From an uncultured Flavobacteriales bacterium (GTDB lineage: Bacteria > Bacteroidota > Bacteroidia > Flavobacteriales > BACL11), in the NCBI GenBank assembly GCA_905478765.1, contig CAJQJY010000012.1:66540-130539 (forward strand): a DNA stretch of 64,000 nt. The letters are read 5' to 3'. The stretch's first letter is position 1, and every line of letters begins with the position of its first letter. The notes beneath the pieces were generated by a model that was given only the letters and a program-made list of their open reading frames with translations, was not told where the DNA came from and searched no databases. Shown in pieces: positions 31,413-34,978 of this stretch. The position numbers and the translations under genes are program-made.

Positions 31413-31667
31413 TCATTTTAGCATCAATATTAGTCAAATTTCATCAATTATCACTGAATATCAACTACTTACAGGATTAATCAATTCTTAACATTTTTGT
31501 GTTTATAAATGTGTTATTTGTACATTGTTGATTATCAGTTTATTAAACATAACTTGCTGATAAATAAGGTTTTAAATACATAATATTTAAACAAAATAAA
31601 TATATTTAGAGAAATCATTAAAATAAAGATTTAATTGCAAATTTTGATTTTGAAGCAATTTTAATTC

Positions 31668-31675
31668 TAAGTTTG
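31668..31675 (+). promoter_or_regulatory. -7 element (TAAGTTTG) with upstream TTTG copies, driving microprotein A
   Basis: Exact TAnnTTTG; TTTG tracts at about 31643-31652; 30 nt to the ATG. Confidence 0.65.
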
Positions 31676-31705
31676 GCATCAGTATTAACCAAATTATTTT
31701 ATATT

Positions 31706-31933
31706 ATGGATGCAGTATTTAAGTACATGAACGGGTTCTTTAAAGGACTAATGGGATTAATTATGACCGTATTAGGTCTTGCAATTACAGTAACTTTCCT
31801 TTTTGGAGCAGATGGCTTCATGGGATTGGATGTTATTGGCAACATTGTAGGTGTTATTAATGGATTAGCTGCTGAAGGATTTGTAGGATTGATCGGTATC
31901 TTGATCGTTTGGAGCTTAATCTCAGGTAAATAA
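31706..31933 (+). CDS. Small two-helix membrane protein A (75 aa), unknown function
   Basis: ATG at 31706 after an A/T-rich leader; amphipathic helix-TM-GxDxxGNI-helix-TM; promoter and terminator flank it. Confidence 0.85.
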   Translation: MDAVFKYMNGFFKGLMGLIMTVLGLAITVTFLFGADGFMGLDVIGNIVGVINGLAAEGFVGLIGILIVWSLISGK

Positions 31934-31950
31934 TATACCTTTGATAAACT

Positions 31951-31987
31951 AATAAAAATAGCCCTACATTAGTGGGGCTATTTTATT
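31951..31987 (+). terminator. Intrinsic terminator between microproteins A and B
   Basis: AATAAAAATAGCCCTAC-atta-GTGGGGCTATTTTATT hairpin with T tract. Confidence 0.8.
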
Positions 31988-32003
31988 AAACTCAAAAATC
32001 ATT

Positions 32004-32213
32004 ATGACTGAATTTTTTAAATCACTACAAGAAAAAATAATTGGAGCTATATCTTTAGCATTGTCCATTCTGTGTATTGGTGTGATAGTTCAATTATTAT
32101 TAGGCGAGAGCTTAGTAGGATGGGATCCTGTTGGCAACATTCAAGAAGCAGGTCCGTCTTTTATTGGGGTGATTGCAATAGTGGCTTTATACTTACTTTT
32201 TAAAAAGAAGTAG
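32004..32213 (+). CDS. Small two-helix membrane protein B (69 aa), paralog of A
   Basis: Aligns with A: LLG..xxGWDPVGNI...FIGVI vs LFG...GLDVIGNI...FVGLI; basic C-terminus. Confidence 0.8.
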   Translation: MTEFFKSLQEKIIGAISLALSILCIGVIVQLLLGESLVGWDPVGNIQEAGPSFIGVIAIVALYLLFKKK

Positions 32214-32215
32214 AT

Positions 32216-34978
32216 TTAGTGAGCTTCTAACCAATTTAATCCTTCTCCAATATCAACAATTAAAGGAACTTGCAAACTAACTGCTTGTACCATCTTCTCT
32301 TTTACAAGGGTTTTTAATTCTGAAGATTCAGAATTATGCATGTCAAACACCAGTTCATCATGTACTTGCAACAACATTTTTGATTTCATCTCTCTTTCCT
32401 CCATTGCTTGCTGAATATTAATCATTGCAATTTTTATAATATCAGCAGCTGAACCTTGAATAGGCGCATTTATAGCATTTCTTTCAGCCATAGCTCTTAT
32501 CATTCCATTCCTAGCATTTATATCTTTCAGGTACCTTCTTCTTCCCATAATAGTCTCTACATATTCTTTCTCGCGAGCCTGCTCTATTGACCAATCCATA
32601 TATTCTTTTACTTTTGGAAATTGCTCAAAATAATTATCAATTATCTCCTTTGCTTCAGTACGGCTAACACCAATATTCTGCGAAAGACCAAAAGCGGAGA
32701 TACCATAAATAATTCCAAAATTTACAGATTTAGCTTGCGAACGCATGTTTCTATCCACATCCTTAACATCAACTTTAAAAACTTTTGCAGCAGTAGCAGA
32801 ATGAATATCAACACCATTATTAAATGCAGTAAGCATACCTTCATCTTTACTTAATGATGCCATAATCCTCAATTCAATTTGAGAATAATCAGCAGCCATT
32901 AAAGTGTAATTTTTATCTTTAGGGATAAATGCCTCACGGACTTTCATCCCTCTTTTTGTTCTAATAGGAATGTTTTGTATGTTTGGATTTACTGATGATA
33001 ATCTTCCAGTTGAAGCTACAGACTGATTAAAAGTAGTATAAATTCTTTTGGTTTCAGTATTAACCAATTCTGGCAATGCATCAACATAAGTTGAAAGGAG
33101 TTTTTTAACGCCTCTAAAAGTCAGAATTTCGTCAATAATTGGGTGAGTATCTTTTAATTTTAGCAAAGTTTCTTCTGAAGTAGAGTATTGTCCTGATTTT
33201 GTTTTTTTAGGTTTTTTACTGAGAACCATTTTTGCAAAAAGAATTTCTCCCATTTGTTTTGGAGAAGAGATATTAAACTCTTCATCAGCTAACTGATGAA
33301 TTTTATTCTCAAGCAATTGAAGTTCAGATGTTAATTGTGTGCTATAATTATGTAGCATTTCAACATCTAAAGCTATTCCTTCTAATTCCATTTTAGCAAG
33401 AACTTTAGTTAAAGGAATTTCAATTTTTTCAAACAAATCAAAAACCTCAACTTCCTTCATTTCTTTTTCAAAAATAGGAGCAAGCTTAAATATTACTGAT
33501 GATTTTTCACTTGCAAAATCACATATATTATCGCTATTAATTTCAGAAAGTAAGCTTTTTGTTTTCCCTTTTCCTGTAATAGATTGTTCTTCAACCATTA
33601 TTAAATTTAAATAATTATCTGCAATAATATCTAAGGAATGTCGCATATCAGGATGCAATAAATAATGAGCAATTTGCACATCAAAAAACGCCCCCTTTAA
33701 ATTTATATTATGATTATTTAAAACCTTAATTGCAAATTTTAAATCATACCCGATTTTAATGATTTCCTCATTTTCAAAAATTGATTTTATGTGCTTAATA
33801 TTTTGGTCTAAAAACGGAATATAGTACCCATTATTATCATTATAACTGCATGAAACTCCTACTAACTTTGAAGTTAAAGAATCATTTGTATCTGTAATAA
33901 TACTGAAAGAAAACTTTTTATTATTTTCAATTTCAGCAACAATATTCTTGAAAGTATCCTTAGTAGCTAATTTAAAGTTACTTTTTGGAGTTACTTTTTT
34001 CTGCCGCTCAACTGGTTCTGCAAATAAATCAAATTGAGATGTTGGAGTTAATTCTTTCTTTTCAATAATAATTTCTTTCTTAGGTACTGAAGTAGAGGGA
34101 TTTGAGGCAAGCACCCTTTGTAAAAGTGTTTTAAATTCTAACTCATCAAAAAGTTCTCTTATCTTTTCTTCATTTCTAGAAGAAATAATCAAGGATTTTT
34201 CATCTAATTCAATTGGGACATCTGTAATTATGGTAGCTAACTTTTTACAAAGCAATCCAATTTCTTTTGCTGATTCAACTTTCTCTTTCATCTTCCCTTT
34301 CAAGTCAGCAGTATTCTCAAAAAGACCTTCCATTGAACCGTACTCTTTAATAAACTTTTGTGCTGTCTTTTTCCCAACCCCAGGTATTCCAGGGATATTA
34401 TCAGATGCGTCTCCCATCATCCCTAAGTAGTCAATTACCTGATCAACTCTTTGAATGTCAAATTTTTCAAGCACCTCAGGGATACCCCAAATTGCAGTAG
34501 GTTGCCATTTATTTCCTGGCCTATACATAAATATATTTTCTGACACTAGTTGAGCAAAGTCCTTATCGGAAGTCATCATATAAGTTTGAAATCCTTCCTT
34601 TTCAGCTTTTTTTGCCAAAGTTCCAATCACATCATCAGCCTCAAACCCATCTTTATACAGTTTAGGAATATTAAATGCCTCCAACAACTTGTCAATGTAG
34701 GGCAAAGCATCACGCAATCCTTCAGGCATTGTTTCTCTATGAGCTTTATATTCTGGATACTCTATGTGCCTAAGTGTAGGTGTTGGCCTATCAAAAACAA
34801 CTGCAATATGAGTTGGTTTTTCCTTTCTTATCACTTCATTTAAAGTATTCACAAAACCAAAAACTGCTGAGGTATCTAATCCCTTAGAGTTAATTCTAGG
34901 GTTTTTTGCAAAAGCAAAATATGCTCTGTAAATAAGCGCAAAAGCATCTAATAAAAATAATTTCTTTTCTTCTTTCAT
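32216..34978 (-). CDS. polA: DNA polymerase I (3'-5' exonuclease motifs degenerate)
   Basis: LLDAFALIYRAYFA, EADDVIGT, GMMGDASDNIPG, ADYSQIELR, RSQAKSVNFGIIYG, QVHDEL. Confidence 0.99.
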   Translation of the reverse strand: MKEEKKLFLLDAFALIYRAYFAFAKNPRINSKGLDTSAVFGFVNTLNEVIRKEKPTHIAVVFDRPTPTLRHIEYPEYKAHRETMPEGLRDALPYIDKLLEAFNIPKLYKDGFEADDVIGTLAKKAEKEGFQTYMMTSDKDFAQLVSENIFMYRPGNKWQPTAIWGIPEVLEKFDIQRVDQVIDYLGMMGDASDNIPGIPGVGKKTAQKFIKEYGSMEGLFENTADLKGKMKEKVESAKEIGLLCKKLATIITDVPIELDEKSLIISSRNEEKIRELFDELEFKTLLQRVLASNPSTSVPKKEIIIEKKELTPTSQFDLFAEPVERQKKVTPKSNFKLATKDTFKNIVAEIENNKKFSFSIITDTNDSLTSKLVGVSCSYNDNNGYYIPFLDQNIKHIKSIFENEEIIKIGYDLKFAIKVLNNHNINLKGAFFDVQIAHYLLHPDMRHSLDIIADNYLNLIMVEEQSITGKGKTKSLLSEINSDNICDFASEKSSVIFKLAPIFEKEMKEVEVFDLFEKIEIPLTKVLAKMELEGIALDVEMLHNYSTQLTSELQLLENKIHQLADEEFNISSPKQMGEILFAKMVLSKKPKKTKSGQYSTSEETLLKLKDTHPIIDEILTFRGVKKLLSTYVDALPELVNTETKRIYTTFNQSVASTGRLSSVNPNIQNIPIRTKRGMKVREAFIPKDKNYTLMAADYSQIELRIMASLSKDEGMLTAFNNGVDIHSATAAKVFKVDVKDVDRNMRSQAKSVNFGIIYGISAFGLSQNIGVSRTEAKEIIDNYFEQFPKVKEYMDWSIEQAREKEYVETIMGRRRYLKDINARNGMIRAMAERNAINAPIQGSAADIIKIAMINIQQAMEEREMKSKMLLQVHDELVFDMHNSESSELKTLVKEKMVQAVSLQVPLIVDIGEGLNWLEAH

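Follow-up and report, generated by a model that had tools for sequence, protein, structure and literature searches.

We analysed a stretch of 64,000 nucleotides (referred to below as the window) from a 1.6-Mb, 98.6% complete genome assembly of an uncultured marine Flavobacteriales bacterium. Our subject is a pair of small genes, A and B, whose products are paralogous microproteins that may form the major and minor subunits of an abundant inner-membrane assembly. The locus, all of it on the plus strand, is composed of the following features:

31643-31646, plus strand: -33 element (TTTG) of the gene A promoter, Bacteroidetes type, 21 nt upstream of the -7 box
31668-31675, plus strand: -7 box of the gene A promoter, TAAGTTTG (consensus TAnnTTTG)
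31706-31933, plus strand: gene A, open reading frame (ORF) with an ATG start, 75 aa; putative major, ancestral-type two-helix inner-membrane microprotein
31936-31943, plus strand: second TAnnTTTG-like box, TACCTTTG, read in the sequence, ahead of the hairpin
31950-31988, plus strand: GC-rich hairpin flanked by an A-run and a T-run (-23.4 kcal/mol, z = -5.85)
32004-32213, plus strand: gene B, ORF of 69 aa; diverged paralog of A, putative minor subunit
32214-32450, plus strand: transcribed 3' tail, antisense into the end of polA, with RNA contigs reaching 32393-32595 in many runs

An original prediction, made from the letters of the DNA alone, had named the two genes, the promoter, the hairpin, the second box, the shared motifs and the codon counts, and all of these were recovered at the positions given there.

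A and B are true paralogs, with a similarity beyond chance. The motifs predicted to be common to both proteins, namely the end of the first transmembrane helix (TM1; FLFG in A, LLLG in B), the turn (GLDVIGNI and GWDPVGNI) and a segment of the second helix (TM2; FVGLI and FIGVI), were all found, and their positions are conserved across 31 homologs of A and 33 of B; the C-terminal tails read SGK in A and KKK in B. The homology on which the predicted pairing depended is also evident when the two profiles are aligned with hhalign (probability 95.9%, E 5.5e-9, 70 colinear columns, end to end). Cross-matches between the hidden Markov models (HMMs) of A and B in relatives range from 1e-4 to 1e-10. 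Moreover, a profile built solely from non-flavobacterial members of the family picks A (3.5e-19) and B (1.9e-9) and no other ORF genome-wide.

AlphaFold2 models A as two helices (residues 2-33 and 43-73; pLDDT 74) and B as three (2-33, 42-49 and 51-67; pLDDT 80.6), of which 42-49 is a short extra helix in the loop. Residues 2-15 are amphipathic (N-terminal hydrophobic moment 0.57), and this conserved helix, which carries Lys6 and Lys13, is continuous with TM1. The N- and C-terminal segments contain 3.0-4.9 Lys/Arg residues, compared with 0.4-0.8 in the loop, while the loop contains 2.3-2.9 Asp/Glu residues, and in both respects A, B and the distant members are alike; the termini are therefore predicted to be cytoplasmic and the G-x-D-x-x-G-N-I turn periplasmic, i.e. 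both proteins are predicted N-in/C-in hairpins. The chains end three residues past TM2. Both helices have glycine-rich faces; TM2 opens with a near-invariant GxxG and TM1 closes with LFG, and a ring of polar residues (Q, E and T from TM1, D and N from the loop) lies near the outer end.

The consensus promoter predicted for A was recognised with the pattern TTTG-N17-23-TAnnTTTG as TTTG-N21-TAAGTTTG (31643-31675), and its -7 box keeps a position 34-39 nt ahead of the ATG of A in 56 of 58 distinct loci. An alternative, longer ORF of A, starting with TTG at 31673, overlaps this box; the homologs begin with MD or ME. The hairpin, which had been described as a terminator, recurs in every relative that was inspected, as A is followed there, too, by a GC stem-loop and a T-run. 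Its stem sequence varies between families, and therefore it is the structure that is kept. We regard it as a candidate intrinsic terminator of partial effect, or a candidate RNA-stabilising element, following A. A scan with sigma-70 and terminator consensus sequences detected no terminator after B; such scans are uninformative for Bacteroidetes, and this one also overlooked the hairpin at 31950-31988.

The placement of a box before the hairpin, as seen with TACCTTTG, is restricted to the genus of the window and one relative (4 loci). In 44 of the 58 loci B has a -7 box of its own, located after the hairpin; in the genus of the window there is no promoter box between the hairpin and B. Thus, the predicted position of B beyond a terminator stands in so far as the hairpin precedes B, but it is qualified by the promoter boxes of B in those 44 loci and by the RNA contigs that cross the hairpin in many deep runs.

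Codon usage distinguishes the two genes: it is ribosomal-protein-like in A and average in B. C-ending codons occupy 10 of the 20 Phe/Ile/Asn/Tyr positions of A (0.50), with no ATA, compared with 2 of 16 in B, which has no TTC or ATC and four ATA, and the hand counts of the prediction were therefore exact. The mean C-ending fraction of the genome is 0.167 and its 99th percentile 0.33; A exceeds the latter (binomial P = 6e-4), and the genes with the highest bias genome-wide are those for ribosomal proteins, SecG and outer-membrane proteins (OMPs). Among orthologs, the C-ending fraction is 0.31 for A versus 0.167 for B, and ATA occurs 33 versus 181 times; the fraction is higher in A in 45 of 58 ortholog pairs, which are not independent samples.

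In streamlined marine Flavobacteriales, gene A ranks with the genes of highest transcription. A contig of about 685 nt (31722-32405), present in at least 12 runs of marine metatranscriptomes that belong to at least six studies, covers A, the hairpin and B with a k-mer depth of 29-306, against 0-8 in the flanks, and overall the depth of the locus exceeds that of its flanks 20- to 60-fold. The RNA contigs start at 31677-31698, and none of the metatranscriptome contigs assembled from 31503-31636. In runs X21, X24 and X25 gene A was assembled alone, in contigs that stop at the hairpin (31939-31976). The depths of A and B are 30.8 and 8.5 in X22, and 88.8 and 7.6 in X28. Wherever contigs separate the genes (X21, X22, X24, X25, X28), A is either 4-12 times deeper than B or present alone, and never the reverse. 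The direction of the difference (A above B) is thus supported by the data, whereas the magnitude of the ratio is not. The proposal that A is made in bulk and B in lesser amount agrees with the codon bias kept in orthologs, the conserved hairpin and these A-only or A-rich contigs.

Transcripts of A and B cross the hairpin and extend by 200-380 nt into the terminal part of polA, in antisense orientation (window 32214-32600), where they may interfere with polA transcription. A search of Rfam over the locus returned sub-threshold noise only, and the abundant RNA is therefore not a known RNA family.

At 90% identity, A has 78 homolog clusters and B has 147, all annotated as "hypothetical" and all derived from metagenome-assembled genomes (MAGs), single-amplified genomes or metagenomes of marine Flavobacteriales. 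The family occurs in 78 of 301 Flavobacteriales genomes, all of 1-2.3 Mb and distributed over five GTDB families, and it is near-universal in the family to which the window belongs. The order A, hairpin, B is found in 72 of 74 loci of these five small-genome marine families, with 57-190 nt between A and B. In the window, A is preceded by a metC-like gene and an SDR gene, and B is followed by a convergent polA, whose stop is 2 nt from that of B. As predicted, no phage, secretion or ATPase gene adjoins A or B among the window ORFs and locus neighbours. The metC-(SDR)-A-B-polA synteny is kept in four of the five families; it reflects general gene-order conservation and gives no functional clue.

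In one family (loci L016 and L046) the syntenic site is occupied by a single gene, which matches the A profile at 5e-29 and the B profile at 4e-9 and represents either the state before duplication or a secondary loss of B. In a weakly resolved tree the flavobacterial B copies group into one clade, which emerges from within the A-like sequences on a long stem (SH-aLRT 91-94); a single old duplication is therefore indicated. In matched genomes the mean ortholog identity is 67.6% for A and 56.9% for B, A being the more constrained. The conserved regions are complementary, comprising the N-terminus and TM1 in A, and the loop and TM2 in B.

Two loci titled as other organisms, L047 (Thalassomonas sp.) and L075 (Candidatus Neomarinimicrobiota), carry the flavobacterial metC-SDR-A-B-polA synteny, and the L047 proteins are up to 95% identical to those of the window. 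Both appear to be contigs of Flavobacteriales that were wrongly binned into MAGs from other phyla.

The prediction of an unknown family was borne out by database searches. Pfam gave no match for A or B at E<=10 and none among 77 family members at E<=0.01; the best NCBIfam entry for A, NF045849 (a pilin-like family of Mycoplasma integrative and conjugative elements, ICEs), was sub-threshold (E 0.29), with nothing above noise among the 77 members; no PHROGs family was found at E<=0.1; three profiles retrieved nothing from the PDB sequences; and the Foldseek comparison that had been proposed, of the A model with the PDB, returned one match at E 6.2, which counts as none. No description of the family came up in our literature searches. 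No characterised family or system accommodates A and B, which are therefore new at the level of the protein family; for a mechanism we make no such claim.

The family extends well beyond the Flavobacteriales. A merged profile found 169 representatives (50% clustering) among 1.84 billion proteins, and a profile of distant members at least 1,191 clusters (90% identity) of about 73-80 aa. The distant members carry the labels of marine Alphaproteobacteria (Rhodospirillaceae, Sneathiellales), of Gammaproteobacteria and of one Myxococcota MAG, some of them on contigs of 3.8-5.6 Mb. The link to marine bacterioplankton suggested in the original prediction was correct, since the homologs come from marine Flavobacteriales and other marine bacteria. 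Two further lineages show the layout of gene, hairpin, gene: one is gammaproteobacterial (73 + 77 aa), and the other, which has a TonB context (80 + 78 aa), is of unassigned taxonomy. In many lineages the gene is present in a single copy, and the neighbours vary with the lineage (a TonB/FecCD cluster, pnp-ychF, metabolic genes). In the unassigned lineage (loci L081 and L078) the microprotein is encoded directly downstream of a cluster with a TonB-dependent receptor, a FecCD-type ABC transporter and TonB_C, singly in one case and as a tandem pair in the other.

The layout of an abundant and a scarce paralog is also that of major and minor pilins, and the prediction had included the possibility that A and B build an extracellular or periplasmic filament. 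The hydrophobic two-helix hairpin with its short loop resembles VirB2, TrbC and TraA pilins, the expression follows a major-subunit logic, and the sub-threshold NCBIfam entry named above is a pilin-like one. However, this option fared badly. Neither VirB4 (PF03135) nor the PilB/T2SSE ATPase (PF00437) is present in the 98.6%-complete genome, which lacks a type IV secretion system; the A and B sequences show, as judged by reading, no cleaved signal peptide and no G↓F/M-xxxE prepilin motif; both termini are predicted to be cytoplasmic; no pilin HMM matches any of the 77 members; and no assembly genes lie near the family in any lineage examined. We therefore consider a filament extremely improbable, and membership of the pilins was rejected on the profile, secretion-machinery, leader-peptide and prepilin evidence alike.

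Another group with comparable architecture comprises the ATP synthase c subunit and related proteolipid rings, which share with A and B the hairpin of about 75 aa, the glycine-rich faces, the abundance and the expected oligomeric state. The loop is predicted to have the opposite orientation in A and B, though, and there is no conserved carboxylate in TM2 (in A, B or the wider alignments), no atp operon context and no PF00137 match; membership of the c-subunit family was rejected.

The data show the paralogy, the conserved layout, the asymmetric and very high expression and the carriage by phages (see below), together with a predicted topology; we infer that A oligomerises, that A and B are in contact and that they have a role in the envelope. 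The whole reading, an abundant inner-membrane oligomer that has A as its major and B as its minor subunit and plays such a role, has in our view an even chance of being right. Each protein would place its N-terminal amphipathic helix on the cytoplasmic face, followed by TM1, the acidic periplasmic loop, TM2 and the basic cytoplasmic tail. A would be the ancestral-type subunit and the bulk product, with its own promoter, the terminator hairpin and the ribosomal-protein-like codons, and it would pack via its glycine-rich helix faces into a homo-oligomeric, membrane-embedded ring or array, not an extracellular filament. B would have arisen by one duplication predating the split of the five Flavobacteriales families, keeping the loop and TM2 and not the N-terminus; made at a level several-fold below that of A, it would join the A assembly as a minor subunit that tunes it. 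The role of the assembly would lie in the homeostasis of the envelope or of its permeability. Since many lineages make do with one copy, a homo-oligomer should suffice.

A partial parallel is provided by TatA and TatB, tandem paralogs with an amphipathic helix, of which TatA is in excess and forms homo-oligomers tuned by the minor paralog. A and B are likewise tandem paralogous small membrane proteins with the first in excess; however, in Tat proteins the amphipathic helix comes after a lone transmembrane helix, A and B are not homologous to them, and a tatC partner is missing here.

Several points weigh against the major and minor subunit reading. Oligomerisation of A and its contact with B are proposals; the confidence of the AlphaFold2 models is moderate (pLDDT 74 for A, 81 for B), Foldseek finds nothing, and no gene neighbour indicating a process is common across the phyla. 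The tree was built on only 75 columns. With regard to dosage, the levels of A and B are read from mRNA abundance and codon bias, which are proxies for protein; the depths of the Logan contigs are flat means over mixed strains, taken from assembled contigs and not raw reads; many runs yield a single contig across both genes, i.e. there is read-through of the hairpin; and in run X9 the pieces put B within about 2-fold of A. Finally, the promoter box that B has for itself in 44 of 58 relatives means that A and B may act independently.

This last point leads to an alternative in which A and B have separate jobs after duplication and share no assembly, the hairpin being simply the terminator of A and B an ordinary gene by itself. 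The promoter boxes of B, the different conserved regions of the two proteins, the single copies in many lineages and in all phages (see below), and the expression signature of B, which is that of an average gene, would all suit such independence. Against it stand the adjacency and order of A and B, which are strict across five families and recur in Gammaproteobacteria, the retention of the loop motif and the transmembrane packing motifs in both proteins, and, in the genus of the window, the missing box between the hairpin and B together with RNA contigs that cross the hairpin. On balance, we judge independence of the two proteins unlikely.

It is also conceivable that the hairpin is a small gated pore, a release valve for turgor or ions that functionally replaces the mechanosensitive channel MscL. 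The architecture recalls the MscL core (a Phe/Lys-rich amphipathic N-helix, a glycine-rich TM1 ending in FG, a periplasmic loop, TM2 and a basic cluster), and the polar ring near the outer end would favour a pore. Moreover, the two distributions are nearly exclusive: MscL (PF01741) is encoded by 113 of the 301 Flavobacteriales genomes, comprising 1 of the 78 with the family and 112 of the 223 without it, and the genome of the window lacks MscL and has an MscS-type channel (C19:21283-21477). This complementarity is confounded by lineage; it amounts to only five families versus eight, with at least five more having neither, and a single event in one lineage, or the ecology of the open ocean, may account for it. 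A and B are half the size of MscL, with a short loop and no C-terminal helical bundle, and their expression is far higher; an emergency valve is not expected at the level of ribosomal proteins. The carriage by phages would also be left unexplained. A functional analogue of MscL is therefore, in our opinion, quite unlikely. Homology to MscL was rejected, since hhalign against a flavobacterial MscL profile gave a probability of 0.3-0.4%, confined to an AxG[IV]xxxxFG patch of 12-14 columns, and neither A, B nor any of the 77 family members matches PF01741. As regards its occurrence, MscL is absent from all five families that carry the microproteins, except for one 2.1-Mb genome of the same genus, and is present in eight others.

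Many distant members of the family are viral and belong to uncultured myoviruses. The IMG/VR contigs with an A-like copy number at least 148 for a first seed and at least 426 for a second, i.e. at least 574, and some of the first-seed contigs are 130-145 kb long. Each phage has one copy, which is always A-like, and no homologs of these copies were found in GenBank records of cultured phages. Among the phage proteins, the major capsid protein and a core protein encoded beside it are closest to those of Flavobacterium phage immuto (57.8% and 41.8% identity).

In the phage group of the first seed, 73 of 80 loci have a barrel gene directly upstream of the microprotein gene and on the same strand. 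Its product, of 133-146 aa, has a signal peptide and the C-terminal end SY[KR]F. A host homolog of 141 aa (47% identity, E 6e-36) is encoded in the genome of the window, unlinked to A and B; it shows high codon bias, and its RNA depth is equal to or above that of A in the same runs. Strong barrel orthologs are found only in lineages that also carry the microprotein. The two genes were adjacent only in phages, never in the cellular loci examined. No Pfam match above threshold was obtained for the 141-aa host barrel or its phage homolog. In the genome of the window the 141-aa gene (L176 5321-5746; C1:26321-26746) adjoins another barrel gene, of 346 aa (L176 5918-6958; C1:26918-27958), on the minus strand; both have a ribosomal-protein-like codon bias and k-mer depths of hundreds to thousands, with zero in the flanks.

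The position of the cassette of barrel (an OMP) and microprotein varies among the phage genomes. In one of them (L134, 4658-6647) it is placed between two conserved myovirus genes; in a second (L090, 4486-6023) the same slot contains a microprotein from the other half of the family, on the opposite strand. The genes flanking the slot are 48% and 41% identical between these two phages, and in phage immuto (L274, 1631-2713) the slot is an empty gap of 33 nt. The phage copies thus have both a cellular homolog and a slot that is empty in a related phage, and they qualify as host-derived cargo. Temperate coliphages are known to carry comparable lysogenic-conversion genes, such as porin Lc of phage PA-2 and Lom of lambda. 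These resemble the cassette in that a phage carries a copy of an abundant host outer-membrane barrel, but the carrier described here is a T4-like myovirus of lytic type, and its barrel is paired with an inner-membrane microprotein.

The frequency of the family in uncultured myoviruses could also suggest the opposite route, namely that A and B are a domesticated phage pair of the holin/antiholin type or one for superinfection exclusion. In size, in the two transmembrane helices and in the basic C-terminal tail they resemble class II holins or pinholins, and tandem paralogs are reminiscent of holin/antiholin pairs. Nevertheless, the pair occupies a core syntenic position (metC-SDR-A-B-polA) across families, its codon bias is adapted to the host and its mRNA constitutively abundant, which would be intolerable for a lethal holin; no endolysin or spanin gene adjoins it in hosts or phages, the family has no PHROG match, and the empty slot of the cultured relative immuto fits transfer from host to phage. 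We consider such an origin very improbable. Holin membership itself was rejected, as A and B are core, codon-adapted and abundantly expressed host genes with no lysis genes nearby and no PHROG at E<=0.1.

Returning to the oligomer with A as major and B as minor subunit, flavobacterial myoviruses carry the A-type subunit alone as cargo, to which one phage group adds the host-like outer-membrane barrel. Presumably, the extra major subunit lets the phages sustain or remodel the envelope of the infected host. The closest analogy of lifestyle, and of lifestyle only, is offered by the high-light-inducible proteins (HLIPs, encoded by hli), small membrane proteins of marine cyanobacteria that occur in multiple and tandem copies, are highly expressed and are carried by T4-like marine phages. 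The two groups have in common the tandem small membrane proteins, the very high expression and the status of host-derived phage cargo. However, HLIPs have one transmembrane helix with a chlorophyll-binding motif, while the microproteins have two helices and heterotrophic hosts, show no sequence relation to HLIPs, are not known to be linked to pigments and have no Chloroa_b-bind Pfam match, the motif having been judged by reading the alignment.

A broader proposal, which we put forward only tentatively and think less probable than not, is that the family represents an unrecognised envelope module of pelagic bacteria across phyla: an abundant ring or array of hairpins that would work, in Flavobacteriales, with a small outer-membrane barrel of equal abundance, and that would have been captured more than once by marine myoviruses as an auxiliary cassette. 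If such an envelope module exists, it would be the heterotroph counterpart of the cyanophage genes hli and psbA.

A family that is unnamed in databases is thus encoded by a locus whose transcription is among the strongest in abundant, uncultured marine Flavobacteriales with small genomes. With the A-hairpin-B layout recurring in different phyla, nature offers a clean example of how the stoichiometry of paralogous microproteins is controlled. If the family does form an abundant inner-membrane assembly, the cassette of barrel and microprotein would serve as a practical marker linking uncultured myoviruses to flavobacterial hosts, the family would represent a new class of host-derived phage cargo, and it would fill a gap in our picture of the cell envelope of oligotrophic bacterioplankton.

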